Source: Pristiophorus japonicus (Eukaryota). Taken from it: a DNA stretch of 64,000 nt. The position numbers and the translations under genes were made by a program. Below the pieces are notes generated by a model that was not told where the DNA came from, did no database searches, and was given only the letters and a program-made list of their open reading frames with translations. The stretch covers positions 135,594,001-135,658,000 of the forward strand of contig NC_091990.1 in assembly GCF_044704955.1 (NCBI RefSeq), given 5' to 3'. Positions 32,780 to 64,000 of this stretch are shown here, in pieces; position 1 is the first letter of the stretch; every line of letters begins with the position of its first letter.

Positions 32780-33412
32780 AGACTCGCCCTCCTGTATGGC
32801 TCAGAGACATGGACCATGTACAGTAGACACCTCAAGTCGCTGGAGAAATACCACCAACGATGCCTCCGCAAGATCCTGAAAATCCCCTGGGAGGACAGAC
32901 GCACCAACATCAGTGTCCTCGTCCAGGCAAACATCCCCAGCATTGAAGCACTGACCACACTTGATCAGCTCCGCTGGGCAGGCCACAAAGTCTGCATGCC
33001 AGACACGAGACTCCCAAAACAAGTGCTCTACTTGGAACTCCTTCATGGCAAACGAGCCAAAGGTGGACAGAGAAAACATTACAAGGATACCCTCAAAACC
33101 TCCCTGATAAAGTGCAACATCCCCACTGACACCTGGGAGTCCCTGGCCAAAGAGCGCCTTAAGTGGAGGAAGTGCATCCGGGTGGGCACTGAGCGCCTCA
33201 AGTCTCATCACCGAGTGCATGCAGAAGACAAGCGCAGGTAGTGGAAAGAACGTGCAGCAAACCTGTCCCACCCTCCCTTCCCCTGAACGACTATCTGTCT
33301 CACCTGTGGCAGGGACTGTGGCTCTCATATTGGACTGTTCAACCACCTAAGGACTCATTCTAAGAGTGGAAGCAAGTCTTCCTCGATTCTGAGGGACTGC
33401 CAATGATGATGT
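32780..33412 (+). mobile_element. RTE (BovB-like) LINE 3' end
   Basis: LEKYHQRCLRKIL.I.WEDRRTN..VL, QLRWAGH, RLPKQVLY.EL..GKR..GGQRK; C-terminal zinc knuckle; (GAT)n tail. Confidence 0.9.
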
Positions 33413-41000: not shown

Positions 41001-41350
41001 ACTAGAACTAGGGGGCACAGCCTCAAAATACGCGGGAGCCAATTTAAAACCGAGTTGAGAAGGAATTTCTTCTCCCAGAGGGTTGTGAATCTGTGGAATT
41101 CTCTGCCCAGGGAAGCAGTTGAGGCTAGCTCATTGAATGTATTCAAATCACAGATAGATAGATTTTTAACCAATAAGGGAATTAAGGGTTACGGGGAGCG
41201 GGCAGGTAAGTGGAGCTGAGTCCATGGCCAGATCAGCCATGATCTTTTTGAATGGCGGAGCAGGCTCGAGGGGCTAGATGGCCTATTCCTGTTCCTAATT
41301 CTTATGTTGTTATGTTCTTATATTCTTATGTTCTTATGTTCTTATGTTCA
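38030..41350 (+). mobile_element. CR1 LINE with ORF1 tail and nearly complete ORF2 (APE endonuclease + RT)
   Basis: YLNARSIRNK, AITETW, GVVYRPP, MGDFN, SDHSMV and RT motifs; stops at 38803-38805 and 40782-40784, frameshift at an A-run near 40530; (TTCTTATG)n tail. Confidence 0.95.
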
Positions 41351-42066
41351 TATGGCTATTGCCTGGCACTTGTGTGGCACAAATGTTATTTGCCACTTAT
41401 CAGTCCCAGCCTGGATGTTCTCCAGATCTTGCAGCATGCTGGCATTGACTGCTTCATTATCTTGGGAATTGTGAATGGACAAATTGAAAATAGATACAGA
41501 TCATTCCAACTCAACGGTTTTAAAATAGGAAAAACTGGCGACTATATCGTAGAACGTCGGTTGGACCTCAAAGATATTTAATTACGGAATGCTAGGACAC
41601 AGGTTCATGTCTGAGATCACCCACATGGTCAGTCCCAGTTCTCAGATAATGACATCGGTGAGATGTCAACTGGAGACTTCCTCCCCATAGCAATGGAGGG
41701 AATTGAGCTGTAGAGTCACTTGGGACAGCTGAGACACAGCTCCCAGTGCCCCATCACACAGACGCATTGACAGTCACCTGTAAAAGGTTGCTTGCTGGTC
41801 CCTTAGCCATAGTATAGTGTGAGGCTAATTGAGAACCAAGAGAAAAATAAATAGAAAACAGGAGAAAATTACAAGACATGAGCAAATATTGTGGATCAGC
41901 AAAAGTCTCAGGTCAATCTAATATCTGAAGACATTCTACAGCTTTCAGAAACATGTATTCTGGAATAGAAATCAAAGGCTGGAAATGCACAGCATTGTCA
42001 GCATCTGAAATGGGGGAACAATGGAGACCCTTCCGAATAAGTGGGATGAATCACTATTTATTCTAA

Positions 42067-43995
42067 CAGAAAATGCTGGAAATACTCCATAGGCCAGGCA
42101 GCAATCTGTGGAGAAAGAAGCAGAGTTAACGTTGCAGGTCAATGACCCTTCATCAGAACTGGAAGAAGTTAGAGATTTAACAGTTTATAAGCAAGCAGCG
42201 AAAGAAAGGGATGAAGGAGAAGGGGTGGAAAGAACAAAAGGGAAGGTGTTTGAAAATGTGGAGGGCAGCACTCAGTAAATGACAAAAGAGGGCGGTAATG
42301 GGACTACAGCAGATCAGGTCTCCAGTTGTCTTGGGTAATCTTGCCACTGGACCAAGACCTAGCTCTGTCAAGCCCGTGTGGTGGCTGGTGTGCAACGGCC
42401 ACCACACGATAAAAAAATCCACGCACAGGCGTCTTCCACTCTTGAGGATGTAGCTCGGGTTCTTCATTCGAAATACCTGTGAACTCATCCTTTTTTTTGG
42501 TGTGGAAGCACGTCATCCTTGTTTTGAGGGACCGACTATGATGATGATGAATAAAGAAACAAAAGCTGGGTCTAGAGGAGCTGTAAATGGCAACAGCGAA
42601 ATAATTCCAGCACCTGCTGTCTGAAAAAATGGGAGCAATAGTTATGATCTGAAGTTGTTGAAATCAATGGAAGGAAGTAAAGTGCCTAAGTGTAAGCAGA
42701 GGTGCGATTCCTTGAGCTTCCAAGAGCTTCATTAGAACAGTGTAGGAGGATGAGGTCAGAGTGGGAGTGGCATGGAGAATTAAAATGGCAAGCGACCGGA
42801 AGCTCAGGGTCACGCTTGCGGATTGAATGGAGATGTTCAGTAAAATGATCAACCAATCTGCATTTAGTCTCCACAATGTAGAGAAGACCACATCGTGAGG
42901 AGTGAATACAGTATACTAATTTAAAAGAAGTACAAGTAAATCGCTGTGTTACCTCCAAGGAGTGTTTTGGGGCCCTGAACAGTGGGCAGTGAGATGGTAA
43001 AAAGCCAAGCATTGCATCTTCTGCACTTGCATAGCATGGTGCTGTGGGAAGGGGAGCGGGCATTGGGGGCTAATGGAAGAGCAGACCAGGGTGTCATGGA
43101 GGAAATGGTCCATTTAGAATGCTGAAAGGAGAGGGGAAGATGTGTTTGGTAGCGGCATCATGCAGACAGTGATGGAAATGGTGGTGGATGATACGTTGAC
43201 TGTAGAGGCTGGTGTAGGGGAAGGTGAGGACAAGGGAGGAGAAGGCGTGAGGGCAGAAGTCTGGGAAATGGGACGGACATGGTCAGGAGCCCTGTCGACC
43301 ACTGTGGAGAGGAATCCTCGGTTGAAGAAAAAGGAAGATATAGCAGAAGCACTGGTGTGGAAGGTGCATTGTTGGAACAGATGTGATGGAGACGGAGAAA
43401 CTAGGAAAATAGAATAGAGTCTTACTGGAAGCATTGTGGGAGGAAGTGTACTCAAGGTAGCTGTGGAACTCAGTAGGCGTATAATAGATATTGGGGAATA
43501 GCCTATCCCCAGAAGCCCCGAGTCTCATTGCCGAGAGCATGCAGAAATCAAGTGCAGGCAGCGGAAAGAGCATGTGGCAAACCAGTCCCACCCACCCCTT
43601 CCCTCAACGACTATCTGTCCCACCTGTGACAGGTACTGTGGTTCTCGTATTGGACTGTTCAGTCACTTAAGGACTCAGTTTTTAGAGTGGAAGCAAGTCT
43701 TCCTCGATTCCGAGGGACTGCCGATGATGATGATGATGATGATCCCCAGAAATGAAGAGAAAGAATTTGGGGAAGGGAAGGTAAGAGTTGGAGATGGACC
43801 ATCTGAAGGCGAGGGAGGGATGACAATTGGAGGCAAAGTTGATATTTTCCAGTTCGGGGCGAGAGCAGGAAGCGATCATCGACCTGAAACATTAACTCTG
43901 TTTCTCTCTCCACAGATGCTGTCTGACCCGCTGAGCATTTCCAGCATTTTCCGTTTTTATTTTAGATTTTCAGCATCCGCAGTAGTTTGCTTTTG
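42067..43995 (-). mobile_element. Penelope-like element fragment (RT C-terminus and GIY-YIG endonuclease); repeated at ~45506-47432 and ~48943-50869
   Basis: FTCTSFKLVYCIHSSRCGLLYIVETKCRLVDHFTEHL...PVACHFN (GIY-YIG) and YYTPTEFHSYL.YTSSH; interrupted by RTE-type tails at 42306-42549 and 43515-43743. Confidence 0.85.
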
Positions 43996-44410
43996 TACTA
44001 TTTATTCTAACTGGATTGACATAAGAACATAGGAATATACAGAACTTGAAAAGTCTACTGCAGGTCAGGCAGAATCTGTGAAAGATCAGAAGTCAGTCAG
44101 TCGATGTTTCAGATATTTAATCAAAAAGTAGAGGGGTGATCTTATAGAAACATTCAAAATAATGAAAGGGATAGACAAGATAGAGGCAGAGAGGTTGTTC
44201 CCACTGGTCGGGGAGACTAGAACTAGGGGGCACAACCTCAAAATACGGGGGAGCCAATTTAAAACCGAGTTGAGAAGGAATTTCTTCTCCCAGAGGGTTG
44301 TGAATCTGTGGAATTCTCTGCCCAAGGAAGCAGTTGAGGCTAGCTCATTGAATGTATTCAAATTACAGATAGATAGATTTTTAACCAATAAGGGAATTAA
44401 GGGTTATGGG

Positions 44411-44661
44411 TGTAAAGTCCTGTCCCCTCAGTACAGATTCACACGAGGCATGTAGTGAAGTCAAGGTCACTCTGGACCTGCACCTTTTATTTCACAGCTC
44501 TGGAATGCTGCACTTGCCTGAGACCTGTCCTTGTATATCTCTCTCTCTTGCAAGTACACCCCCAGTGGTAAGGTATGCTGGTGGTTACAGGTCATATCTT
44601 ATTACAGTCATGAATAGCATGTTGGGATACAGTTATATAGAATAATGTAAGATACATGACA
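44411..44661 (-). mobile_element. Solo LTR (251 bp) in triplication copy 2
   Basis: TGTAA...TGACA termini; 5-bp TSD ATGGG (44406-44410, 44662-44666); minus-strand AATAAA. Confidence 0.88.
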
Positions 44662-47600
44662 ATGGGGAGCGGGCGGGTAAGTGGAGCTGAGTCCACGGCC
44701 AGATCAGCCATGATCTTTTTGAATGGCGGAGCAGGCTCGAGGAGCTCGATGGCCTACTCCTGTTCCTAATTCTTATGTTCTTATGTTCATATGGCTATTG
44801 CCTGGCACTTGTGTGGCACAAATGTTATTTGCCACTTATCAGTCCCAGCCTGGATGTTCTCCAGATCTTGCAGCATGCTGGCATTGACTGCTTCATTATC
44901 TTGGGAATTGTGAATGGACAAATTGAAAATAGATACAGATCATTCCAACTCAACAGTTTTAAAATAGGAAAAACTGGCGACTGTATCGTAGAACGTCGGT
45001 TGGACCTCAAAGATATTTAATTACGGAATGCTAGGACACAGGTTCATGTCTGAGATCACCCACATGGTCAGTCCCAGTTCTCAGATAATGACATCGGTGA
45101 GATGTCAACTGGAGACTTCCTCCCCATAGCAATGGAGGGAATTGAGCTGTGGAGTCACTCGGGACAGCTGAGACACAGCTCCCAGTGCCCCATCACACAG
45201 ACGCATTGACAGACACCTGTAAAAGGTTGCTTGCTGGTCCCTTAGCCATAGTATAGTGTGAGGCTAATTGAGAACCAAGAGAAAAATAAACAGAAAACAG
45301 GAGAAAATTACAAGACATGAGCAAATATTGTGGATCAGCAAAAGTCTCAGGTCAATCTAATATCTGAAGACATTCTACAGCTTTCAGAAACATGTATTCT
45401 GGAATAGAAATCAAAGGCTGGAAATGCACAGCATTGTCAGCATCTGAAATGGGGGAACAATGGAGACCCTTCCGAATAAGTGGGATGAATCACTATTTAT
45501 TCTAACAGAAAATGCTGGAAATACTCCATAGGCCAGGCAGCAATCTGTGGAGAAAGAAGCAGAGTTAACGTTGCAGGTCAATGACCCTTCATCAGAACTG
45601 GAAGAAGTTAGAGATTTAACAGTTTATAAGCAAGCAGCGAAAGAAAGGGATGAAGGAGAAGGGGTGGAAAGAACAAAAGGGAAGGTGTTTGAAAATGTGG
45701 AGGGCAGCGCTCAGTAAATGACAAAAGAGGGCGGTAATGGGACTACAGCAGATCAGGTCTCCAGTTGTCTTGGGTAATCTTGCCACTGGACCAAGACCTA
45801 GCTCTGTCAAGCCCGTGTGGTGGCTGGTGTGCAACGGCCACCACACGATAAAAAAATCCACGCACAGGCGTCTTCCACTCTTGAGGATGTAGCTCGGGTT
45901 CTTCATTCGAAATACCTGTGAACTCATCCTTTTTTTTGGTGTGGAAGCACGTCATCCTTGTTTTGAGGGACCGACTATGATGATGATGAATAAAGAAACG
46001 AAAGCTGGGTCTAGAGGAGCTGTAAATGGCAACAGCGAAATAATTCCAGCACCTGCTGTCTGAAAAAATGGGAGCAATAGTTATGATCTGAAGTTGTTGA
46101 AATCAATGGAAGGAAGTAAAGTGCCGAAGTGAAAGTGGATGTGCGATTCCTTGAGCTTCCAAGAGCTTCATTAGAACAGTGTAGGAGGATGAGGTCAGAG
46201 TGGGAGTGGCATGGAGAATTAAAATGGCAAGCGACCGGAAGCTCAGGGTCACGCTTGCGGATTGAGTGGAGATGTTCAGTAAAATGATCAACCAATCTGC
46301 ATTTAGTCTCCACAATGTAGAGAAGACCACATCGTGAGGAGTGAATACAGTATACTAATTTAAAAGAAGTACAAGTAAATCGCTGTGTTACCTGCAAGGA
46401 GTGTTTTGGGGCCCTGAACAGTGGGCAGTGAGATGGTAAAAAGCCAAGCATTGCATCTTCTGCACTTGCATAGGATGGTGCTGTGGGAAGGGGAGCGGGC
46501 ATTGGGGGCTGATGGAAGAGCAGACCAGGGTGTCATGGAGGAAATGGTCCATTTAGAATGCTGAAAGGAGAGGGGAAGATGTGTTTGATAGCAGCATCAT
46601 GCAGACAGTGATGGAAGTGGTGGTGGATGATACGTTGACTGTAGAGGCTGGTGTAGGGGAAGGTGAGGACAAGGGAGGAGAAGGCGTGAGGGCAGAAGTC
46701 TGGAAAATGGGACGGACATGGTCGAGAGCTCTGTCGACCACTGTGGAGAGGAATCCTCGGTTGAAGAAAAAGGAAGATAAAGCAGAAGCACTGGTGTGGA
46801 AGGTGCATCATCGGAACAGATGCGACGGAGATGGAGAAACTAGGAAAATAGAATAGAGTCCTTACTGGAAGCATTGTGGGAGGAAGTGTAATCAAGGTAG
46901 CTGTGGAACTCAGTAGGCGTATAATAGATATTGGGGGATAGCCTATCCCCAGAAGCCCCGAGTCTCATTGCCGAGAGCATGCAGAAATCAAGCGCAGGCA
47001 GCGGAAAGAGCATGTGGCAAACCAGTCCCACCCACCCCTTCCCTCAACGACTATCTGTCCCACCTGTGACAGGTACTGTGGTTCTCATATTGGACTGTTC
47101 AGTCACTTAAGGACTCAGTTTTTAGAGTGGAAGCAAGTCTTCCTCGATTCCGAGGGACTGCTGCTGATGATGATGATGATCCCCAGAAATGAAGAGAAAG
47201 AATTTGGGGAAGGGAAAGTAAGAGTTGGAGATGGACCATCTGAAGGCGAGGGAGGGATGACAATTGGAGGCAAAGTTGATATTTTCCAGTTCGGGGCGAG
47301 AGCAGGAAGCGATCATCGACCTGAAACATTAACTCTGTTTCTCTCTCCACAGATGCTGCCTGACCCGCTGAGCATTTCCAGCATTTTCCGTTTTTATTTT
47401 AGATTTTCAGCATCCGCAGTAGTTTGCTTTTGTACTATTTATTCTAACTGGATTGACATAAGAACATAGGAATATACAAAACTTGAAAAGTCTACTGCAG
47501 GTCAGGCAGAATCTGTGAAAGATCAGAAGTCAGTCAGTCGATGTTTCAGATATTTAATCAAAAAGTAGAGGGGTGATCTTATAGAAACATTCAAAATAAT

Positions 47601-47847
47601 GAAAGGGATAGACAAGATAGAGGCAGAGAGGTTGTTCCCACTGGTCGGGGAGACTAGAACTAGGGGGCACAACCTCAAAATACGGGGGAGCCAATTTAAA
47701 ACCGAGTTGAGAAGGAATTTCTTCTCCCAGAGGGTTGTGAATCTGTGGAATTCTCTGCCCAAGGAAGCAGTTGAGGCTAGCTCATTGAATGTATTCAAAT
47801 TACAGATAGATAGATTTTTAACCAATAAGGGAATTAAGGGTTATGGG

Positions 47848-48098
47848 TGTAAAGTCCTGTCCCCTCAGTACAGATTCACACGAGGCATGTAGTGAAGTCA
47901 AGGTCACTCTGGACCTGCACCTTTTATTTCACAGCTCTGGAATGCTGCACTTGCCTGAGACCTGTCCTTGTATATCTCTCTCTCTTGCAAGTACACCCCC
48001 AGTGGTAAGGTATGCTGGTGGTTACAGGTCATATCTTATTACAGTCATGAATAGCATGTTGGGATACAGTTATATAGAATAATGTAAGATACATGACA
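47848..48098 (-). mobile_element. Solo LTR in triplication copy 3
   Basis: Apparently identical to 44411-44661, with the same TSD. Confidence 0.88.
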
Positions 48099-51000
48099 AT
48101 GGGGAGCGGGCGGGTAAGTGGAGCTGAGTCCACGGCCAGATCAGCCATGATCTTTTTGAATGGCGGAGCAGGCTCGAGGAGCTCGATGGCCTACTCCTGT
48201 TCCTAATTCTTATGTTCTTATGTTCATATGGCTATTGCCTGGCACTTGTGTGGCACAAATGTTATTTGCCACTTATCAGTCCCAGCCTGGATGTTCTCCA
48301 GATCTTGCAGCATGCTGGCATTGACTGCTTCATTATCTTGGGAATTGTGAATGGACAAATTGAAAATAGATACAGATCATTCCAACTCAACAGTTTTAAA
48401 ATAGGAAAAACTGGCGACTGTATCGTAGAACGTCGGTTGGACCTCAAAGATATTTAATTACGGAATGCTAGGACACAGGTTCATGTCTGAGATCACCCAC
48501 ATGGTCAGTCCCAGTTCTCAGATAATGACATCGGTGAGATGTCAACTGGAGACTTCCTCCCCATAGCAATGGAGGGAATTGAGCTGTGGAGTCACTCGGG
48601 ACAGCTGAGACACAGCTCCCAGTGCCCCATCACACAGACGCATTGACAGACACCTGTAAAAGGTTGCTTGCTGGTCCCTTAGCCATAGTATAGTGTGAGG
48701 CTAATTGAGAACCAAGAGAAAAATAAACAGAAAACAGGAGAAAATTACAAGACATGAGCAAATATTGTGGATCAGCAAAAGTCTCAGGTCAATCTAATAT
48801 CTGAAGACATTCTACAGCTTTCAGAAACATGTATTCTGGAATAGAAATCAAAGGCTGGAAATGCACAGCATTGTCAGCATCTGAAATGGGGGAACAATGG
48901 AGACCCTTCCGAATAAGTGGGATGAATCACTATTTATTCTAACAGAAAATGCTGGAAATACTCCATAGGCCAGGCAGCAATCTGTGGAGAAAGAAGCAGA
49001 GTTAACGTTGCAGGTCAATGACCCTTCATCAGAACTGGAAGAAGTTAGAGATTTAACAGTTTATAAGCAAGCAGCGAAAGAAAGGGATGAAGGAGAAGGG
49101 GTGGAAAGAACAAAAGGGAAGGTGTTTGAAAATGTGGAGGGCAGCGCTCAGTAAATGACAAAAGAGGGCGGTAATGGGACTACAGCAGATCAGGTCTCCA
49201 GTTGTCTTGGGTAATCTTGCCACTGGACCAAGACCTAGCTCTGTCAAGCCCGTGTGGTGGCTGGTGTGCAACGGCCACCACACGATAAAAAAATCCACGC
49301 ACAGGCGTCTTCCACTCTTGAGGATGTAGCTCGGGTTCTTCATTCGAAATACCTGTGAACTCATCCTTTTTTTTGGTGTGGAAGCACGTCATCCTTGTTT
49401 TGAGGGACCGACTATGATGATGATGAATAAAGAAACAAAAGCTGGGTCTAGAGGAGCTGTAAATGGCAACAGCGAAATAATTCCAGCACCTGCTGTCTGA
49501 AAAAATGGGAGCAATAGTTATGATCTGAAGTTGTTGAAATCAATGGAAGGAAGTAAAGTGCCGAAGTGAAAGTGGATGTGCGATTCCTTGAGCTTCCAAG
49601 AGCTTCATTAGAACAGTGTAGGAGGATGAGGTCAGAGTGGGAGTGGCATGGAGAATTAAAATGGCAAGCGACCGGAAGCTCAGGGTCACGCTTGCGGATT
49701 GAGTGGAGATGTTCAGTAAAATGATCAACCAATCTGCATTTAGTCTCCACAATGTAGAGAAGACCACATCGTGAGGAGTGAATACAGTATACTAATTTAA
49801 AAGAAGTACAAGTAAATCGCTGTGTTACCTGCAAGGAGTGTTTTGGGGCCCTGAACAGTGGGCAGTGAGATGGTAAAAAGCCAAGCATTGCATCTTCTGC
49901 ACTTGCATAGGATGGTGCTGTGGGAAGGGGAGCGGGCATTGGGGGCTGATGGAAGAGCAGACCAGGGTGTCATGGAGGAAATGGTCCATTTAGAATGCTG
50001 AAAGGAGAGGGGAAGATGTGTTTGATAGCAGCATCATGCAGACAGTGATGGAAGTGGTGGTGGATGATACGTTGACTGTAGAGGCTGGTGTAGGGGAAGG
50101 TGAGGACAAGGGAGGAGAAGGCGTGAGGGCAGAAGTCTGGAAAATGGGACGGACATGGTCGAGAGCTCTGTCGACCACTGTGGAGAGGAATCCTCGGTTG
50201 AAGAAAAAGGAAGATAAAGCAGAAGCACTGGTGTGGAAGGTGCATCATCGGAACAGATGCAACGGAGATGGAGAAACTAGGAAAATAGAATAGAGTCCTT
50301 ACTGGAAGCATTGTGGGAGGAAGTGTAATCAAGGTAGCTGTGGAACTCAGTAGGCGTATAATAGATATTGGGGGATAGCCTATCCCCAGAAGCCCCGAGT
50401 CTCATTGCCGAGAGCATGCAGAAATCAAGTGCAGGCAGCGGAAGGAGCATGTGGCAAACCAGTCCCACCCACCCCTTCCCTCAACGACTATCTGTCCCAC
50501 CTGTGACAGGTACTGTGGTTCTCATATTGGACTGTTCAGTCACCTAAGGACTCAGTTTTTAGAGTGGAAGCAAGTCTTCCTCGATTCCGAGGGACTGCTG
50601 CTGATGATGATGATGATCCCCAGAAATGAAGAGAAAGAATTTGGGGAAGGGAAGGTAAGAGTTGGAGATGGACCATCTGAAGGCGAGGGAGGGATGACCA
50701 TTGGAGGCAAAGTTGATATTTTCCAGTTCGGGGCGAGAGCAGGAAGCGATCATCGACCTGAAACATTAACTCTGTTTCTCTCTCCACAGATGCTGCCTGA
50801 CCTACTGAGCATTTCCAGCATTTTCCGTTTTTATTTTAGATTTTCAGCATCCGCAGTAGTTTGCTTTTGTACTATTTATTCTAACTGGATTGACATAAGA
50901 ACATAGGAATATACAGAACTTGAAAAGTCTACTGCAGGTCAGGCAGAATCTGTGAAAGATCAGAAGTTAGTCAGTCGATGTTTCAGATATTTAATCAAAA

Positions 51001-51489
51001 AGTAGAAGTTTATTTCAATGTTTGAAATTGCTTATCTAGACTAGTTTAATGCGAGACTTTTTAATTGAAAACTTTGTAAATCAGGTTTCTTTGAGCAGTG
51101 CTGACCTGCTGAGAGTTTCCAACATTTTCTGTGTAAAAGAAAGCTTTTGGATTCAATAGTTGCTTTGTTCTGTTGTCTTTATCAGAAAACTGCCCATTCA
51201 ATCCTCTGGCAGTGATGTGAAAACAGTTAACAGATTGAAAAGACTGCTTATTTGTTCCATTCTGCACACATACTGTTTCTTTCATGCTGAAGGAGCTGTG
51301 AAATTAATCATACAGGAATCTGCTAGAATTGTGCCATTTATCAGATTTCAGATAATCAACTGTCTGGGAACAGAACAATGAAACAGTGAGAAGATCATCG
51401 GGCAGTTCTTCCAGTGCCCTGTTCAACATTTATCCCTCAATCAACGGACTAACTGGACATTAATATTGTGGATGTAATGATTTGCACTC

Positions 51490-52025
51490 CCCAAAATCCT
51501 GCAAATTCATTGGCAGGATAGGGACAACAATGTCAGCGTTCTCTCTCTCTCTCACCAACATCCCGAGCATCGAGGCATTGACCATGCTCAATCAGTTCCG
51601 GTGGGTGGGCTACATTGTCTGCATGCTCGATGCTAGACTCCTGAAACAAGCACTCTACTCCGAGCTCTGTCATGGCAGGCGCGTCCCAGGAGGACAGAGA
51701 AAATACTTCAACAGCACTCTGAAAACCTCCTTGAAAAAAATGCAACCTCCCCACAACTCTTGGAAATCCCTGGCCCCGCTCAAAGTGGAGGAGGAGCATC
51801 CGAAGAGACACCGAACACTTCGTGTCACTTCGCCGGGAGCACCCGGAAGCCAAGTACAAAAAGCGGAAGGAGCGTACGACAAATCAAACACTCCAACCAG
51901 CATCCGCCCCACCTGTGACAGAGACTGTAGTTCCTGCATTGGTCTCATCAGTAACCTTAGAACTCATCTTAGTGTGGAATCTAGTCATCCTCGACTCCGG
52001 GAGACTGCCTAAGAAGGAGGAGAAG
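51490..52025 (+). mobile_element. RTE LINE 3' end, degraded
   Basis: NIPSIEAL...QFRWVGY...RLLKQALYSEL..GRR.PGGQRK; CDRDC..CIGLIS.LRTH. Confidence 0.85.
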
Positions 52026-52650
52026 GGATGTAGCTATTTGCACTGGAAAATGCTCTGACAGGCTCTCCATGATCACACGACTTGATTACTGATTGATCCC
52101 CTTGAAGAATAAGCCACACCCAGAAGTTTTTCTGGAATTGGAACTGCCCAGCCGAAGTTCTGAGTGACTTTGCAAAGTGCAATTCGACCCATTCTGATTT
52201 CAGACCGCAGACAGGATAGAGTTCTCCCAGCACAAGTTCCTGACAACCCTAGCCCAAGTTCCTGACCCACACCAGCCCAAGTTCCTGACTTCCAAGCTGA
52301 AATTCCTTATCCCCACAGGCCAAGTTCATGCCCCCCACCTCCCAGCCTAAATTCGTGCTTCCACCAGCCGAAGTTCCTTATCCCCCAACCCATGTTCCTT
52401 GCCCCCACTGCCCCGCCATAGATGAGGCATTGTGTGTAAGTCAAGGATTGTTAACAGGTTTATTGGATATGAGGTGAATAGTGACAGTGTTGTGACTTTC
52501 GGATTTCATCCACTCCAATGATGTCCCTTGTCACACATGCACTGAGCTTTCCGAGAAATCGGGTGTGGGTGTAATAGGGGTTGGAAGAATGTGATCCGCC
52601 TTCCCTGAGTTACCTCTCTTTCCTCTGATCCCCTCTCCTGCTTCCTCTCT

Positions 52651-55600
52651 CGTTCCCCCAGTCCTGGCTCGCTCCCCTAGTCCGTGGCTCGCTCCCCCAG
52701 TCCGTGGCTCGCTCCCCCAGTCCGTGGCTCGTTCCCCGAGTCCGTGGCTCGTTCCCCCAGTCCGTGGCTCGTTCCCCCAGTCCGTGGCTCGCTCCCCCAG
52801 TCTGTGGCTCGTTCCCCCAGTCCGTGGCTCGCTCCCCCAGTCCGTGGCTCGCTCCCCCAGTCCGTGGCTCGCTCCCCCAGTCCGTGGCTCGCTCCCCCAG
52901 TCCGTGGCTCGCTCCCCCAGTCCGTGGCTCGTTCCCCCAGTCCGTGGCTCGTTCCCCCAGTCCGTGGCTCACTCCCCCAGTCCGTGGCTCGCTCCCCCAG
53001 TCCGTGGCTCGTTCCCCCAGTCCGTGGCTCGCTCCCCCAGTCCGTGGCTCGTTCCCCCAGTCCGTGGCTCGTTCCCCCAGTCCGTGGCTCGCTCCCCCAG
53101 TCCGTGGCTCGTTCCGCCAGTCCGTGGCTTGCTCCCCCAGTCCGTGGCTCGCTCCCCCAGTCCGTGGCTCGTTCCCCCAGTCCGTGGCTCGCTCCCCCAG
53201 TCCGTGGCTCGTTCCCCCAGTCCGTGGCTCGTTCCCCCAGTCTGTGGCTTGCTCCCCCAGTCCGTGGCTCATTCCCCCAGTCCCCGGCTCGCTCCCCCAG
53301 TCCGTGGCTCCTTCCCCCAGTCCGTGGCTCGCTCCCCCAGTCCGTGGCTCGTTCCCCCAGTCCGTGGCTTGCTCCCCCAGTCCGTGGCTCGCTCCCCCAG
53401 TCCGTGGCTCGTTCCCCCAGTCCGTGGCTCGCTCCCCCAGTCCGCGGCTCGTTCCGCAGTCCCCGGCTCGCTCCCCCAGTCCGTGGCTCGCTCCCCCAGT
53501 CCGTGGCTCGCTCCCCCAGTCCGTGGCTCATTCCCCCAGTCTGTGGCTCGCTCCCCCAGTCCGTGGCTCGTTCCCCCAGTCCGTGGCTCGTTCCCCCAGT
53601 CCGTGGCTCGCTCCCCCAGTCCTTGGCTCGCTCCCCCAGTCCCCGGCTCGCTCCCCCAGTCCGTGGCTCGTTCCCCCAGTCCCCGGCTCGCTCCCCCAGT
53701 CCGTGGCTCGCTCCCCCAGTCCGTGGCTCGCTCCCCCAGTCCGTGGCTCGCTCCCCCAGTCCGTGGCTCGTTCCCCCAGTCCGTGGCTCGCTCCCCCAGT
53801 CCGTGGCTCGCTCCCCCAGTCCTTGGCTCGTTCCCCCAGTCCCCGGCTCGCTCCCCCAGTCCGTGGCTCGCTCCCCCAGTCCGTGGCTCGTTCCCCCAGT
53901 CCGTGGCTCGCTCCCCCAGTCCGTGGCTCGCTCCCCCAGTCCGTGGCTCGCTCCCCCAGTCCGTGGCTCGCTCCCCCAGTCCGTGGCTCGCTCCCCCAGT
54001 CCGTGGCTCGCTCCCCCAGTCCGTGGCTCGCTCCCCCAGACAGCGGCTCGTTCCCCCAGTCCGCGGCTCGCTCCCCCAGTCCGCGGCTCGCTCCCCCAGT
54101 CCGCGGCTCGCTCCCCCAGTCCGCGGCTCGTTCCCCAGTCCCCGGCTCGCTCCCCCAGTCCGTGGCTCGCTCCCCCAGTCCGTGGCTCGCTCCCCCAGTC
54201 CGTGGCTCGCTCCCCCCGTCCGTGGCTCGCTCCCCCAGTCCGTGGCTCCTTCCCCCAGTCCGTGGCTCGCTCCCCCAGTCCCCGGCTCGCTCCCCCAGTC
54301 CGTGGCTCGCTCCCCCAGACAGCGGCTCGTTCCCCCAGTCCGCGGCTCGCTCCCCCAGTCCGCGGCTCGCTCCCCCAGTCCGTGGCTCGCTCCCCCAGTC
54401 CGCGGCTCGTTCCCCAGTCCCCGGCTCGCACCCCCAGTCCGTGGCTCGCTCCCCCAGTCCGTGGCTCGCTCCCCCAGTCCGTGGCTCGCTCCCCCAGTCC
54501 GTGGCTCGTTTCCCCAGTCCGTGGCTCGTTCCCCCAGTCCGTGGCTCGCTCCCCCAGTCCGTGGCTCGTTCCCCCAGTCCGTGGCTCGTTCCCCCAGTCC
54601 GTGGCTCGCTCCCCCAGTCCGTGGCTCGTTCCCCCAGTCCGTGGCTCGCTCCCCCAGTCCGTGGCTCGCTCCCCCAGTCCGTGGCTCGCTCCCCCAGTCC
54701 GTGGCTCGTTCCCCCAGTCTGTGGCTCGCTCCCCCAGTCCGTGGCTCGCTCCCCCAGTCCGTGGCTCGTTCCCCCAGTCTGTGGCTCGCTCCCCCAGTCC
54801 GTGGCTCATTCCCCCAGTCCCCGGCTCGCTCCCCCAGTCCGTGGCTCCTTCCCCCAGTCCGTGGCTCGCTCCCCCAGTCCGTGGCTCGTTCCCCCAGTCC
54901 GTGGCTCGCTCCCCCAGTCCGTGGCTCGTTCCCCCAGTCCGTGGCTCGCTCCCCCAGTCCGCGGCTCGTTCCCCAGTCCCCGGCTCGCTCCCCCAGTCCG
55001 TGGCTCGCTCCCCCAGTCCGTGGCTCGCTCCCCCAGTCCGTGGCTCGTTCCCCCAGTCTGTGGCTCGCTCCCCCAGTCCGTGGCTCGCTCCCCCAGTCCG
55101 TGGCTCGTTCCCCCAGTCCGTGGCTCGCTCCCCCAGTCCTTGGCTCGCTCCCCCAGTCCCCGGCTCGCTCCCCCAGTCCGTGGCTCGTTCCCCCAGTCCC
55201 CAGCTCGCTCCCCCAGTCCGTGGCTCGCTCCCCCAGTCCGTGGCTCGCTCCCCCAGTCCGTGGCTCGCTCCCCCAGTCCGTGGCTCGTTCCCCCAGTCCG
55301 TGGCTCGTTCCCCCAGTCCGTGGCTCGCTCCCCCAGTCCGTGGCTCGCTCCCCCAGTCCGTGGCTCGCTCCCCCAGTCCGTGGCTCGTTTCCCCAGTCCG
55401 TGGCTCGTTCCCCCAGTCTGTGGCTCGCTCCCCCAGTCCGTGGCTCGCTCCCCCAGTCCGTGGCTCGTTCCCTCAGTCTGTGGCTCGCTCCCCCAGTCCG
55501 TGGCTCATTCCCCCAGTCCCCGGCTCGCTCCCCCAGTCCGTGGCTCCTTCCCCCAGTCCGTGGCTCGCTCCCCCAGTCCGTGGCTCGTTCCCCCAGTCCG

Positions 55601-58600
55601 TGGCTTGCTCCCCCAGTCCGTGGCTCGCTCCCCCAGTCCGTGGCTCGTTCCCCCAGTCCGTGGCTCGCTCCCCCAGTCCGCGGCTCGTTCCCCAGTCCCC
55701 GGCTCGCTCCCCCAGTCCATGGCTCGCTCCCCCAGTCCGTGGCTCGCTCCCCCAGTCCGTGGCTCGTTCCCCCAGTCCGTGGCTCGTTCCCCCAGTCCGT
55801 GGCTCGTTCCCCCAGTCCGTGGCTCGCTCCCCCAGTCCGTGGCTCGCTCCCCCAGTCCGTGGCTGGTTCCCCCAGTCCCCGGCTCGCTCCCCCAGTCCGT
55901 GGCTCCTTCCCCCAGTCCGTGGCTCGCTCCCCCAGTCCGTGGCTCGCTCTCCCAGTCCGTGGCTCATTCCCCCAGTCCGTGGCTCGTTCCCCCAGTCCGT
56001 GGCTCGTTCCCCCAGTCCGTGGCTCGCTCCCCCAGTCCGTGGCTCGTTCCCCCAGTCCGTGGCTCGCTCCCCCAGTCCGTGGCTCGCTCCCCCAGTCCGT
56101 GGCTCATTCCCCCAGTCCGTGGCTCGTTCCCCCAGTCCGTGGCTCGCTCCCCCAGTCCGTGGCTCGCTCCCCCAGTCCGTGGCTCGTTCCCCCTGTCCCC
56201 AGCTCGCTCCCCCAGTCCGTGGCTCGCTCCCCCAGTCCGTGGCTCATTCCCCCAGTCCGTGGCTCGTTCCCCCAGTCCGTGGCTCGCTCCCCCAGTCCCC
56301 GGCTCGCTCCCCCAGTCCGTGGCTCGCTCCCCCAGTCCGTGGCTCGTTCCCCCAGTCCGTGGCTCGTTCCCCCAGTCCCCGGCTCGCTCCCCCAGTCCCC
56401 GGCTCGCTCCCCCAGTCCGTGGCTCATTCCCCCAGTCCGTGGCTCATTCCCCCAGTCCGTGGCTCGCTCCCCCAGTCCGTGGCTCGCTCCCCCCCTCCCC
56501 CAGTCCGTGGCTCGCTCCCCAGTCCGTGGCTCGCTCCCCCAGTCCGTGGCTCGCTCCCCCAGTCCGTGGCTCGTTCCCCCAGTCCGTGGCTCGCTCCCCC
56601 AGTCCGTGGCTCGCTCCCCCAGTCCGTGGCTCGCTCCCCCAGTCCGTGGCTCGCTCCCCCAGTCCGTGGCTCGCTCCCCCAGTCCGTGGCTCGCTCCCCC
56701 AGTCCGTGGCTCGTTCCCCCAGTCCCCGGCTCGCTCCCCCAGTCCGTGGCTCGTTCCCCCAGTCCGTGGCTCGTTCCCCCAGTCCGTGGCTCGCTCCCCC
56801 AGTCCGTGGCTCGCTCCCCCAGTCCGTGGCTCGCTCCTCCAGTCCGTGGCTCGTTCCCCCAGTCCGTGGCTCGTTCCCCCAGTCCGTGGCTCGTTCCCCC
56901 AGTCCGTGGCTCGTTCCCCCAGTCCGCGGCTCGCTCCCCCAGTCCCCGGCTCGCTCCCCCTGTCCGTGGCTCGCTCCCCCAGTCCGTGGCTCGCTCCCCC
57001 AGTCCGTGGCTCGCTCCCCCAGTCCTTGGCTCGCTCCCCCAGTCCCCGGCTCGCTCCCCCTGTCCGTGGCTCGCTCCCCCAGTCCGTGGCTCGTTCCCCC
57101 AGTCCGTGGCTCGCTCCCCCAGTCCGTGGCTCGCTCCCCCAGTCCGTGGCTCGCTCCCCCAGTCCGTGGCTCGCTCCCCCAGTCCGTGGCTCGCTCCCCC
57201 AGTCCGTGGCTCGCTCCCCCAGTCCGTGGCTCGCTCCCCCAGACAGCGGCTCGTTCCCCCAGTCCGCGGCTCGCTCCCCCAGTCCGCGGCTCGCTCCCCC
57301 AGTCCGCGGCTCGCTCCCCCAGTCCGCGGCTCGTTCCCCAGTCCCCGGCTCGCTCCCCCAGTCCGTGGCTCGCTCCCCCAGTCCGTGGCTCGCTCCCCCA
57401 GTCCGTGGCTCGCTCCCCCAGTCCGTGGCTCGCTCCCCCAGTCCGTGGCTCCTTCCCCCAGTCCGTGGCTCGCTCCCCCAGTCCCCGGCTCGCTCCCCCA
57501 GTCCGTGGCTCGCTCCCCCAGACAGCGGCTCGTTCCCCCAGTCCGCGGCTCGCTCCCCCAGTCCGCGGCTCGCTCCCCCAGTCCGTGGCTCGCTCCCCCA
57601 GTCCGCGGCTCGTTCCCCAGTCCCCGGCTCGCACCCCCAGTCCGTGGCTCGCTCCCCCAGTCCGTGGCTCGCTCCCCCAGTCCGTGGCTCGCTCCCCCAG
57701 TCCGTGGCTCGTTTCCCCAGTCCGTGGCTCGTTCCCCCAGTCCGTGGCTCGCTCCCCCAGTCTGTGGCTCGTTCCCCCAGTCCGTGGCTCGTTCCCCCAG
57801 TCTGTGGCTCGCTCCCCCAGTCCGTGGCTCGTTCCCCCAGTCCGTGGCTCGCTCCCCCAGTCCGTGGCTCGCTCCCCCAGTCCGTGGCTCGCTCCCCCAG
57901 TCCGTGGCTCGTTCCCCCAGTCTGTGGCTCGCTCCCCCAGTCCGTGGCTCGCTCCCCCAGTCCGTGGCTCGTTCCCCCAGTCTGTGGCTCGCTCCCCCAG
58001 TCCGTGGCTCATTCCCCCAGTCCCCGGCTCGCTCCCCCAGTCCGTGGCTCCTTCCCCCAGTCCGTGGCTCGCTCCCCCAGTCCGTGGCTCGTTCCCCCAG
58101 TCCGTGGCTCGCTCCCCCAGTCCGTGGCTCGTTCCCCCAGTCCGTGGCTCGCTCCCCCAGTCCGCGGCTCGTTCCCCAGTCCCCGGCTCGCTCCCCCAGT
58201 CCGTGGCTCGCTCCCCCAGTCCGTGGCTCGCTCCCCCAGTCCGTGGCTCGTTCCCCCAGTCTGTGGCTCGCTCCCCCAGTCCGTGGCTCGCTCCCCCAGT
58301 CCGTGGCTCGTTCCCCCAGTCCGTGGCTCGCTCCCCCAGTCCTTGGCTCGCTCCCCCAGTCCCCGGCTCGCTCCCCCAGTCCGTGGCTCGTTCCCCCAGT
58401 CCCCAGCTCGCTCCCCCAGTCCGTGGCTCGCTCCCCCAGTCCGTGGCTCGCTCCCCCAGTCCGTGGCTCGCTCCCCCAGTCCGTGGCTCGTTCCCCCAGT
58501 CCGTGGCTCGTTCCCCCAGTCCGTGGCTCGCTCCCCCAGTCCGTGGCTCGCTCCCCCAGTCCGTGGCTCGCTCCCCCAGTCCGTGGCTCGTTCCCCCAGT

Positions 58601-60533
58601 CCGTGGCTCGTTCCCCCAGTCTGTGGCTCGCTCCCCCAGTCCGTGGCTCGCTCCCCCAGTCCGTGGCTCGTTCCCTCAGTCTGTGGCTCGCTCCCCCAGT
58701 CCGTGGCTCATTCCCCCAGTCCCCGGCTCGCTCCCCCAGTCCGTGGCTCCTTCCCCCAGTCCGTGGCTCGCTCCCCCAGTCCGTGGCTCGTTCCCCCAGT
58801 CCGTGGCTTGCTCCCCCAGTCCGTGGCTCGCTCCCCCAGTCCGTGGCTCGTTCCCCCAGTCCGTGGCTCGCTCCCCCAGTCCGCGGCTCGTTCCCCAGTC
58901 CCCGGCTCGCTCCCCCAGTCCATGGCTCGCTCCCCCAGTCCGTGGCTCGCTCCCCCAGTCCGTGGCTCGTTCCCCCAGTCCGTGGCTCGTTCCCCCAGTC
59001 CGTGGCTCGTTCCCCCAGTCCGTGGCTCGCTCCCCCAGTCCGTGGCTCGCTCCCCCAGTCCGTGGCTGGTTCCCCCAGTCCCCGGCTCGCTCCCCCAGTC
59101 CGTGGCTCCTTCCCCCAGTCCGTGGCTCGCTCCCCCAGTCCGTGGCTCGCTCTCCCAGTCCGTGGCTCATTCCCCCAGTCCGTGGCTCGTTCCCCCAGTC
59201 CGTGGCTCGTTCCCCCAGTCCGTGGCTCGCTCCCCCAGTCCGTGGCTCGTTCCCCCAGTCCGTGGCTCGCTCCCCCAGTCCGTGGCTCGCTCCCCCAGTC
59301 CGTGGCTCATTCCCCCAGTCCGTGGCTCGTTCCCCCAGTCCGTGGCTCGCTCCCCCAGTCCGTGGCTCGCTCCCCCAGTCCGTGGCTCGTTCCCCCTGTC
59401 CCCAGCTCGCTCCCCCAGTCCGTGGCTCGCTCCCCCAGTCCGTGGCTCATTCCCCCAGTCCGTGGCTCGTTCCCCCAGTCCGTGGCTCGCTCCCCCAGTC
59501 CCCGGCTCGCTCCCCCAGTCCGTGGCTCGCTCCCCCAGTCCGTGGCTCGTTCCCCCAGTCCGTGGCTCGTTCCCCCAGTCCCCGGCTCGCTCCCCCAGTC
59601 CCCGGCTCGCTCCCCCAGTCCGTGGCTCATTCCCCCAGTCCGTGGCTCATTCCCCCAGTCCGTGGCTCGCTCCCCCAGTCCGTGGCTCGCTCCCCCCCTC
59701 CCCCAGTCCGTGGCTCGCTCCCCAGTCCGTGGCTCGCTCCCCCAGTCCGTGGCTCGCTCCCCCAGTCCGTGGCTCGTTCCCCCAGTCCGTGGCTCGCTCC
59801 CCCAGTCCGTGGCTCGCTCCCCCAGTCCGTGGCTCGCTCCCCCAGTCCGTGGCTCGCTCCCCCAGTCCGTGGCTCGCTCCCCCAGTCCGTGGCTCGCTCC
59901 CCCAGTCCGTGGCTCGTTCCCCCAGTCCCCGGCTCGCTCCCCCAGTCCGTGGCTCGTTCCCCCAGTCCGTGGCTCGTTCCCCCAGTCCGTGGCTCGCTCC
60001 CCCAGTCCGTGGCTCGCTCCCCCAGTCCGTGGCTCGCTCCTCCAGTCCGTGGCTCGTTCCCCCAGTCCGTGGCTCGTTCCCCCAGTCCGTGGCTCGTTCC
60101 CCCAGTCCGTGGCTCGTTCCCCCAGTCCGCGGCTCGCTCCCCCAGTCCCCGGCTCGCTCCCCCTGTCCGTGGCTCGCTCCCCCAGTCCGTGGCTCGCTCC
60201 CCCAGTCCGTGGCTCGCTCCCCCAGTCCGTGGCTCGCTCCCCCAGTCCCCGGCTCGCTCCCCCTGTCCGTGGCTCGCTCCCCCAGTCCGTGGCTCATTCC
60301 CCCAGTCCATGGCTCGCTCCCCCAGTCCGTGGCTCATTCCCCCAGTCCCCGGCTCGCTCCCCCAGTCCGTGGCTCGCTCCCCCTGTCCGTGGCTCGCTCC
60401 CCCAGTCCGTGGCTCGCTCCCCCAGTCCGTGGCTCGCTCCCCCGGCTCGCTCCCCCCTCCCCCAGTCCCCGGCTCGCTCCCCCCCTCCCCCAGTCCCCGG
60501 CTCGCTCCCCCAGTCCCCGGCTCACTCCCCCCC
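52651..60533. repeat. 20-bp minisatellite (CCCCCAGTCCGTGGCTCGYT)n, ~395 units
   Basis: Directly visible; variant units recur with a 3203-bp period. Confidence 0.99.
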
Positions 60534-61099
60534 ACCCCACCCCGTCTCTCACATTTGCAATCGAAAAATGCGCTGTTTCGATCCCATTGATCACATGACC
60601 TGATTGGTCCCCTTGGAGGATAAGACACACCCAGCAGTTTCTCTGGAATGTGTCATTAGAACCACACAGCCCAAGTTCTTAGTGACTTTACATCGTGCAA
60701 TTCGAGCCATTCTGACTGTCGACTTCAGACAGGAGAGAGCTCCCCATCCCAGCCCAAGTTCCTGACAATCCCCCCAGCCCAAGTTCCTGACACCCGCCTC
60801 CCCCCCCAGACCAAGTTCCTGAAGCACCCCCCCAGCCTAAGTTCATGTCCCCCCCAGTCAAATTTCCTAAATTCCTCCCACACCACAAGTTCCTGCCAAA
60901 TCCCAGCCCAAGTTCCTGACCGCCCCCCCACCCCGCCGCGTAAGTTCATGCCCCATCCCAGTCCAAGTTTGTTGCTTTTCGAACGCTAACCCAAAAACCC
61001 TAGTAGCTGACAATAGATACTGACCCAAATAATGCAGGATGAATCAAACACATGGCAGAAATAATGTAAAAAATGTAATGACATTTATTGTCGCGGTCG

Positions 61100-62273
61100 G
61101 CAGCAGCTCTGGGGTCGGACTTGCAACGCTCCGGGGTCAGACTAGCAAAGCTCTGGGGTCGGACTGGCAACGCTCCGGGGTCGGACTGGCAACGCTCCGG
61201 GGTCAGACTAGAAAAGCTCTAGGGTCGGACTGGCAACGCTCCGGGGTCGGACTGGCAAAGCTCTGGGGTCGGACTGGCAAAGCTCTGGAGTCGGACTGGC
61301 AACGCTCCGGGATCGGACTAGCAACGCTCCGGGGTCGGACTAGCAAAGTTCTGGGGTCGGACTGGCAAAGCTCTGGGGTCGGACTAGCAAAGCTCTGGGG
61401 TTGGACTGGCAAAGCTCTGGGGTCGGACTAGCAAAGCTCTGGGGTCGGACTGGCAACGCTCCGGGATCGGACTAGCAAAGCTCCGGGATCGGACTAGCAA
61501 AGCTCCGGGATCGGACTAGCAAAGTTCTGGGGTCGGACTGGCAAAGCTCTGGGGTCGGACTAGCAAAGCTCTGGGGTTGGACTGGCAAAGCTCTGGGGTC
61601 GGACTAGCAAAGCTCCGGGGTCGGACTGGCAAAGCTCTGGGGTTGGACTGGCAAAGCTCTGGGGTCGGACTAGCAAAGCTCTGGGGTCGGACTGGCAAAG
61701 CTCTGGGGTCGGACTAGCAAAGCTCTGGGGTCGGACTGGCAACGCTCCGGGATCGGACTAGCAAAGCTCCGGGATCGGACTAGCAAAGCTCCGGGGTCGG
61801 ACTGGCAAAGCTCTGGGGTCGGACTGGCAAAGCTCCGGGATTGGACTAGCAAAGCTCCGGGATCGGACTAGCAAAGCTCCGGGGTCGGACTGGCAAAGCT
61901 CTGGGGTCGGACTGGCAAAGCTCCGGGATCGGACTGGCAAAGCTCTGGGGTCGGACTGGCAAAGCTCTGGGGTCGGACTAGCAAAGCTCTGGGATCGGAC
62001 TGGCAACGCTCCGGGATCGGACTAGCAAAGCTCCGGGATCAGACTAGCAAAGCTCTGGGGTCGGACTGGCAAAGTTCTGGGGTCGGACTGGCAAAGCTCT
62101 GGGGTCGGACTGGCAAAGCTCCGGGATCGGACTAGCAAAGCTCCGGGGTCGGACTGGCAAAGCTCTGGGGTCGGACTGGCAAAGCTCCGGGATCGGACTG
62201 GCAAAGCTCTGGGGTCGGACTGGCAACGCTCCGGGGTCGGACTGGCAACGCTCCGGGGTCAGACTAACAAAGC
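61100..62273. repeat. 22-bp minisatellite (GCAAAGCTCYGGGRTCGGACTR)n, ~53 units
   Basis: Directly visible. Confidence 0.98.
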
Positions 62274-62440
62274 AATGCAGTCGGCAGCAGCACAGCTCCT
62301 CATGATGCAGGCCCCACTTCTGTTTTCGGATTCGAGGAGTCTGCGCATACACGGGATAGAGGGGGGCGGAGTCCAGAGCGGTCGTGCGCATGCGTAGCAC
62401 GTCGGGGGTGGAGTCCTGGGCGCACATGCGTTGAAGGACA

Positions 62441-63933
62441 TAAGAATATAAGAAATAGGAGCAGGAGTTGAAATTGCAGCAGCAGTAGGCAATTTGGCCC
62501 TTCGAGTCTGCTCCGTCATTCAATAAGATCATGGCTGATCTAATCATAGACTCAGCTCCATTTTTCCCTGCCTGCTCCCCATAACCCTTTACTCCCTTAT
62601 CGCTCAAAAATCTGTCTATCTCTGCGTTAAATATATTCAATGACCCAGCCTCCACAGCTCTCTGAAGCACAGAATTCCATAGATTTACAACCCTCTGAGA
62701 GAAGAAATTTCTCTTCATCTCAATTTTTAATGGGCGGCCCCTTATTCTGAGACTATGCCCCTAGTTTTAGTTTCCCCTATGAGTGGAAATATCCTCTCTG
62801 CATCCACCTTGTCGAACCCCCTCATTACCTTATGTTTTAATAAGATTACACCTCATTCTTCTGAACTCCAAAGTGCATACTCAACCTATCTTCATAAGTC
62901 AACCCCTCATTTTCAGAATCAACCGAGTGAACCTTCTCTGAACAGCCTCCAATGCATGTATATCCTTCCTTAAATACGGAGGCCAAAACTATATGCAGTA
63001 CTCCAGGTGTGGCCTTACCAATGCACTGTACAGTTGTAGCAAGACTTCTCTGCTCTAACCCCCTTGCAATAAAGGCCAACATTCCATTTGCCTTCCTGAT
63101 TACTTACTGTACCTGCATCCTAACCTTTTGTGTTTCATGCACAAGGACCCCCAGGTCCCTCTGTACTACAGCACTTTGCAATTTTTCTCCATTTAAATTA
63201 TAATTTGCTTTTCTATGTTTTCTGTCAAAGTGGATAACCTCACATTTTCCCACCTTATACTCCATCTGCCAAATTTTTGCCCACTCACTTAGCCTGTCTA
63301 TATCCCTTTGCAGATTTTTTTGTGTCCTCCTCACAATTTGCTTTCCCACCCATCTTTGTATCATCAGCAAACTTGGCTACATTACACTCGGTCCCTTCAT
63401 CCAAATCATTAATATAGATTGTAATAGTTGAGGACCCAGCACCGATCCCTGCGGCACCCACTAGTCACTGTTTGCCAACCGGAAAATGACCCATTTATCC
63501 CGACTCTCTGTTTTCTGTTAGTTAGCCAATCCTCTATCCATGCTAATAGATTACTCCCAACCCTGTGAACTTTTATCTTGTGCAGTAACCTTTTACGTGC
63601 CACCTTATCGAATACCTTCTGGACATCCAAATACACCACATCCACTGGTTCCCCCTTATCCACCCTTCTTGTTACATCCTCAAAGAATTCCAGCAAATTT
63701 TTCAAACATGATTTTCCGTTTCATAAAACCATGCTGACTTTGCTTGACGGTACTATGATTTTCTAAATATCCCATTACTGCTTCCTTAATAATGGACTCC
63801 AGCATTTTCCCGACGACAGATGTTAGGCGAACAAAAAAAAAACAATTTTATCAGTCTTTCTGTGGAATTGGTTTGAAATTAAACACAAACTGGTCTATAG
63901 TTTCTTGCTTTCTGTCTGCCTCCTTTTTAAAAT
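62441..63933 (-). mobile_element. CR1 LINE, 5'-truncated
   Basis: Minus-strand RT motifs ([29 protein letters not shown]); candidate 7-bp TSD AAGGACA (62434-62440, 63934-63940). Confidence 0.92.
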
Positions 63934-64000
63934 AAGGACACACAAAAAACTGTTGCAAATAATCACTGATAATACAGAAAAAGACATTTTACTAATTTTA

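Follow-up and report, generated by a model that had tools for sequence, protein, structure and literature searches.

The 64,000-nucleotide window of Pristiophorus japonicus DNA analysed here (NCBI RefSeq assembly GCF_044704955.1, contig NC_091990.1, positions 135,594,001 to 135,658,000, forward strand) carries a small transposable element at 13302-14282 and a unit of about 12 kb at 52026-63967 that contains two minisatellite arrays. Both belong to a decayed family of Mutator-like elements (MULEs), recognised by its transposase, its 9-bp target-site duplication (TSD) and its termini. At a probability of roughly 80%, we hold that this is a MULE family with short terminal inverted repeats (TIRs) whose built-in repeats likely grew into long arrays in single copies after insertion, through the ordinary repeat expansion of the host. 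The strongest cases lie outside the window, and its 12-kb unit is a modest example. The first-pass annotation of this DNA had proposed a dispersed TIR transposon family whose copies seed different arrays, and this proposal is borne out; it had also left the family unclassified, and decayed MULE transposase copies with the same termini do exist in the genome.

Termini, transposase and subfamilies

Searches of the animal's own genome (5.9 Gb) with the two left ends returned 3,565 and 2,514 first-look candidates, 40 of each being scored; these figures are not copy numbers, and the family is likely present in thousands of copies. The copies studied were 114 anchored ones (116 less the duplicates L050 = L018 and L051 = L016), 58 of which were extended to 10 kb. 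From them, 75 end pairs were selected on terminal sequence alone. Their flanking 9-mers match at 0.80, compared with 0.46 for 8 bp, 0.40 for 10 bp and 0.38 for a cross-pair control; 21/75 pairs are exact and 45/75 within one mismatch at 9 bp (8 bp: 3/75), so that consistent termini and TSDs recur across the genome copies. The first position of the 9-mer matches at 0.79, as often as the rest, and the base following the terminus varies among copies. Target sites are 85% AT. A TSD of 9 bp falls within the MULE/Mutator range of 8-11 bp. The annotation had wavered between Merlin and a MULE with an 8-bp TSD; the MULE assignment holds, by PF10551 and PF21056, whereas Merlin, which one account links to an IS1016-like transposase (bioRxiv 2021.09.26.461848), is rejected together with the 8-bp length, as the transposase found between family termini matches MULE families only and the TSD is 9 bp long.

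A search of the genome with PF10551 gave 17 loci, and a protein search added further broken copies; L146, with 24% identity to the shark protein P0001, was left out as unrelated before the loci were counted at 24. Transposase-encoding copies with the same termini, which the annotation had thought worth looking for, were found at seven of these 24 loci, where the coding sequence lies between family termini with a 9-bp TSD (six exact, one at 8/9; shortest copy 3,836 bp), and a 250-kb copy described below is the eighth TSD-bounded transposase copy. The left block at L147 is a separate copy adjoining the transposase element and was not counted as that element's end. No intact transposase copy was seen among the 24 loci examined. 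Eight fragments were scanned against Pfam: three from the catalytic region score 35.6-70.9 bits for PF10551 (cut-off 27.6) and exceed the cut-off for PF21056, and the other five have no Pfam match. DGTY, DKD and CLFH motifs are seen, with the third acidic residue read from separate frames, and the gene is directed from what is the right end in the window towards the left end. A SWIM-like Cys/His pattern is also visible; the genome's own fragments give no Pfam match for it, and the homologue P0005 lies narrowly above the PF04434 cut-off. The protein ends in a PHD-type Cys/His pattern at 9/17 loci, which aligns to the C-terminus of P0005 (E 4e-4); again the genome's own fragments have no Pfam match, and P0005 and P0006 match PF00628 below its cut-off.

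The closest named proteins come from sharks, then from molluscs and a crayfish; no protein under the name Rehavkus came up in these searches. Shark proteins named 'ZSWIM3-like' (Heterodontus, Carcharodon, Pristiophorus; NCBI/UniRef) share about 52% identity and the same domain order, with several paralogues in one shark; one of them, P0001, lacks the first catalytic D. P0001, P0003, P0008, P0009 and P0156 are 'ZSWIM3-like' or uncharacterised models of one other shark and close homologues of the transposase. To judge from these protein sequences, copies of the transposon may be behind some of the 'ZSWIM3-like' gene models of sharks.

Imperfect TIRs of about 22-24 bp are shared by coding and non-coding members, and the 57 TSD-bounded copies range from 581 to 4,700 bp. 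Three architectures were distinguished: subfamilies A and B have a middle block and a C-rich tract, and in subfamily C a block from the 3' region of the parent is joined straight to the right arm. Every subfamily bears degenerate subterminal repeats of about 22/44 bp at the end that lies 3' of the transposase; the CTGAGC...GTAA core, found in 43/114 copies, is not universal. The middle block (52420-52625 and 13625-13800 in the window) holds a minus-strand AATAAA. A non-coding RNA in this block was considered and rejected, no Rfam match coming near the gathering score. In L073 (122-1756) and L071, within the 10-kb stretches L173 and L171, two family left arms face each other, and in L073 they are near enough for a foldback-like unit.

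The small element of the window (13302-14282, 981 bp) is a complete non-autonomous MULE of subfamily A on the minus strand, which is the transposase strand in coding relatives. It has imperfect TIRs of about 22 bp and is bounded by TSDs at 13293-13301 and 14283-14291 that match at 8/9 positions. In its right arm it resembles the 5' end of the transposase copy that spans 250 kb (E 6e-12 and 4e-8), and its C-rich low-complexity tract at 13800-14080, a 35-mer repeated 3.1 times, has expanded counterparts in other A copies (L002 and L044).

Tandem arrays and their seeds

Arrays of at least 250 bp occur inside 45/114 copies, compared with 7/114 flanks (paired 1.4-kb windows) and 10/174 distant windows; for arrays of at least 400 bp at 80% match, the counts are 10/114 copies and 1/174 distant windows (p = 0.0005). 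The arrays sit at five or more sites, namely the subterminal repeats, the C-rich tract, a G-rich tract, the junction in C copies and two positions within the transposase. The internal slot from which the annotation had arrays arise is therefore several sites and not one, although the recurrence itself stands. By their sequence, the array units appear to be variants of motifs resident in the family, not arbitrary sequence. A G-quadruplex as the cause was weighed as well; some units have no G-runs.

Two arrays of the window, one of 20-mers and one of 22-mers, are private to this locus: all 128 exact genome matches of a 34-base probe from the former, and all nine of a 33-base probe from the latter, fall there. 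The 20-mer unit is 3-4 changes away from the tract motif of subfamily B. Of eight C copies shown, seven have the 22-mer unit just once, and L092, the nearest relative, has it in partly duplicated form. A CpG at one site of the 20-mer is kept in 300/318 units, and the arm that hosts the array shows 83-87% identity with its best relatives. Among themselves, array units differ far less than copies of the element do.

A short direct repeat in the N-terminal region of the transposase has two copies at each of five loci; three other loci have 3, 5 and 28. The array unit of 23 bp breaks the transposase frame, the unexpanded spacing being 24 bp. One copy (L138 on C8, with L244-L245) measures 19,592 bp between exact TSDs and contains a 16-mer repeated 778 times, a 34-mer 58 times and a 23-mer 28 times; one array of 12.3 kb sits inside the transposase. 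At L145, the left terminus at C11:130,130,254 and the right terminus at C11:129,879,979 carry the same 9-mer on both sides, enclosing a span of 250,276 bp that is filled with the 23-mer from the transposase N-terminal region. Of this array, 44 kb was read contiguously and 14 samples gave 40-43 motifs per kb, while a fifteenth, at 15 motifs per kb, suggests an interruption. The exact 23-mer probe has 424 matches in the genome and, among the matches listed, 100/100 lie in the 250-kb span. Within it, probe matches are spaced repeatedly at about 11-11.6 kb, a hint of higher-order duplication, and a gap of about 3.5 kb lies near 129.884-129.887 Mb on C11.

The origin of a satellite is mostly a guess, made from partial resemblance to a transposon whose ends have already decayed. 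In this family, sister copies with intact termini and TSDs show, at one and the same site, the unexpanded state, intermediates and the 250-kb end state, so that seed and starting point are both known, and the family provides a natural series for the study of satellite DNA birth. Its interest is carried mainly by this graded repeat series and by the 250-kb copy.

Growth after insertion is favoured because the arrays are unique to their loci, CpG decay in the 20-mer array is low and the 23-bp unit breaks the reading frame. Short direct repeats and low-complexity tracts would act as slippage seeds. The first duplication would result from slippage or unequal exchange between short direct repeats, following a model outlined in PMC6947457, and gene conversion or unequal exchange would then lengthen and homogenise the array. 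The seeds themselves may, as a conjecture, have been made by repair during the active phase of the family.

The 12-kb unit and the competing readings

The 12-kb unit is a fusion in which a B left arm, carrying the 20-mer array, meets a C copy that contains the 22-mer array and a long interspersed nuclear element (LINE). The B left arm (52026-52648, minus strand) is made up of the terminus, a CCAAT/E-box block, subterminal repeats of about 22 bp (52227-52420) and the middle block (52420-52625). The 20-mer minisatellite follows on the plus strand from 52649 to about 60531, with about 392 units at 92% match, and begins where the C-rich tract of the small copy begins, as the annotation had observed. 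At 60553 a second left arm starts (74% identity to 52036-52288), which is the left part of the C copy (60553-61104, minus strand) without its first 11 or so bases; it comprises the left block, a stretch of subterminal repeats and a block with a match in the 3' region of transposase copies. The 22-mer minisatellite (61105-62273, plus strand, 53 units) occupies the junction at which other C copies have the unit once, and the right block of the C copy (62274-62440, minus strand), with GC-box motifs, would correspond to the promoter end of the parent element. Within the C right arm lies a 5'-truncated LINE of about 1.5 kb (62441-63933, minus strand), which has reverse-transcriptase motifs, is flanked by a 7-bp duplication, has many paralogues within the window and is separate from the DNA transposon; by its motifs we take it to be CR1-like. 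A short unrelated insert at 63830-63880, with an A-run at its start, splits this LINE inside the C copy. The right terminus of the C copy (63934-63967, minus strand) closes the unit, its last bases damaged.

The annotation had treated the whole as one 12-kb copy, collinear with the small element and sharing its blocks. The sharing is confirmed for the CCAAT/E-box block (52061-52153, 77%, E 1.5e-15), the CTGAGC...GTAA block (52451-52623, 80%, E 4.7e-41) and the motifs GCCCCACTTC and GGCGGAGTCCAGAG, but the right arms of the two give no significant blastn alignment. Collinearity breaks after the first array: the small copy also aligns to 60600-60671 at 88%, which shows that the large unit restarts with its second left arm. 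The right terminus named in the annotation is a true family terminus, since related copies run directly from the right block into it, but it is separated from its arm by the LINE. A family left terminus at the start and a family right terminus at the end, in the right orientation, are what one intact element at 52026-63966, transposed as a unit, would display; even so, we consider such an element most improbable. The flanks share no TSD (2/9 under either placement of the damaged right end, the right flank being unlike that at 52017-52025), another left arm sits in the interior, a B-type left end is paired with a right terminus that is of C type and unlike that of the 14 TSD-bounded B copies, and the block order left-middle-left-C-right occurs in 0/114 sampled copies; a single 12-kb element was ruled out on the missing TSD, the internal left arm and the block order. 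No TSD displaced upstream by the repeat abutting 52025 was seen at 50500-51760, which was inspected by eye and not systematically. Nesting of a C copy in a B copy was likewise rejected, a B-type right arm being absent from the window and from about 19 kb downstream. In the simplest reading, a deletion would have fused two neighbouring copies, one B and one C, each of which later grew its own array, the LINE landing in the C arm.

Several points weigh against the reading of a MULE family whose built-in repeats grew into arrays after insertion. The excess of long arrays (at least 400 bp, 80% match) over the flanks is modest, at 10/114 inside and 2/114 in the flanks (paired p = 0.039), and at a 75% match cut it is 11 against 3 of 114 (p = 0.057). 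Against GC-matched windows, the GC-rich subset of the distant ones, it is not significant (10/114 versus 1/47, p = 0.18), and a family-specific excess over GC-matched DNA is not demonstrated. The copies are the top 29-30 matches per search and no random sample; the figure of about 10,000 23-mer units in the 250-kb copy is extrapolated from about 78 kb read out of 246; and array lengths and the B-C junction are those of the assembled sequence. The middle block of A and B is missing from all 17 transposase loci tested (0/17), which leaves their direct parent only partly identified; the block may have been captured from elsewhere, or it may stem from a parent outside the sample. The GC-matched comparison is also what favours a reading in which nothing is specific to the family, the genome growing minisatellites wherever a repeat is GC-rich or of low complexity and the MULE being just one abundant substrate, and the unrelated locus L146 too had a long array nearby. 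We give this reading a little under even odds. The contrast between copies and both their flanks and distant windows for arrays of at least 250 bp, and the repeated expansion of homologous sites in the family, argue against it; it is compatible with host expansion of built-in repeats and differs in emphasis only.

That transposon activity itself makes the arrays, through excision-gap repair with slippage or through selection for a larger number of subterminal repeats that bind transposase, with transposition then moving the long arrays, seems unlikely to us. The degenerate subterminal repeats of every subfamily would be in keeping with it, as would the subterminal repeats described as typical of mosquito MULEs (PMC5225508) and the report, cited in bioRxiv 2024.12.02.626372, that more repeats raise foldback excision. 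Yet both window arrays are unique to this locus, arrays also lie within the transposase, where they break the frame, and their units are much more alike than the element copies; activity of this kind may explain the short seeds, not the long arrays. Beyond host expansion after insertion, one may go further and propose that mini- and full-scale satellites of sharks come, recurrently and in disproportionate number, from a genuine MULE lineage of vertebrates, with pre-seeded sites that include transposase coding sequence, a series within one genome from 2 to about 10,000 units, and birth in place proven by intact ends and TSD. We would sooner doubt than accept this wider proposition; if it is true, satellite birth rates per seed type would be directly measurable.

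Known systems and neighbouring features

With MULE/Mutator elements the family shares the MULE DDE transposase domain, the 9-bp TSD, many non-autonomous derivatives with common ends and subterminal tandem repeats, as described in portions of PMC6446971 and, for Muta1 of Aedes, PMC5225508. Its TIRs of only about 22-24 bp lie within the 14-500 bp range quoted in PMC6446971 and below what is typical there, and its subterminal repeats are seen at one end only, unlike those of the comparators described in these sources. The same 2019 survey (Dupeyron et al., PMC6446971) speaks, in the part concerned, of limited evidence for chordate MULEs, and the passages at hand from PMC4350176 mention low-copy MuDR in human and contain no statement on sharks. 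The termini, the TSD and the transposase of this family are evidence of MULEs in a group of vertebrates where the survey, as excerpted, doubted them. Neither this shark family nor a TSD-bounded element of such a size is described in the literature searched; a Dfam or Repbase entry is possible.

Arrays born from transposons are already known, as in Rehavkus, Tetris and miDNA4. Rehavkus resembles the shark family in its 9-bp TSD, a minisatellite before the 3' TIR and, possibly, a PHD-like C-terminal finger, according to the sections available of PMC6446971 and bioRxiv 2024.12.02.626372. For Tribolium, these sources report that repeats carried by the element in 2-12 copies have expanded, in a sister species, into an array of 80.5 kb. 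Those repeats sit in long inverted termini, whereas the shark family has short TIRs and several internal sites including the transposase, and its 250-kb array has kept both element ends and an exact TSD around it, unlike the Rehavkus satellites as portrayed there. We did not file the family as Rehavkus because the long inverted termini are absent and the PHD finger is a candidate only; one Rehavkus listed in these sources has a 26-bp TIR, so that the criterion of long termini is soft.

Other DNA transposons with an internal monomer or variable array are miDNA4 and Xstir/Xmix of Xenopus, for which short direct repeats are proposed as seeds (reviews PMC9659126 and PMC12628747, in the parts that treat them), and likewise, from partial accounts, Tetris of Drosophila virilis and DTC84 of a clam. 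For Xstir, the same reviews describe a hybrid of two adjacent elements. Satellites derived from miniature inverted-repeat (MITE) or foldback elements are presented in such accounts as having one repeat per family, whereas the shark MULE has many units at different sites, each long array tested being private. Minisatellites derived from Alu, B1 and MaLR, treated under the Haber-Louis model in the relevant part of PMC6947457, resemble the shark arrays in starting from a unit with short direct repeats on either side, which is first duplicated and then expanded; they come from retroelements, and the shark MULE arrays reach satellite scale.

Just left of the B arm, a segment of about 3.44 kb stands in nearly three tandem copies at 41193-51006, with 97-98.6% identity, and this region may be locally unstable. 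Between it and the B arm, 51487-52025 holds the 3' end of a further LINE-like repeat, presumably RTE-like by its motif; its short-repeat tail runs up to the B terminus, and paralogues of it lie at 32864-33401 and elsewhere in the window.

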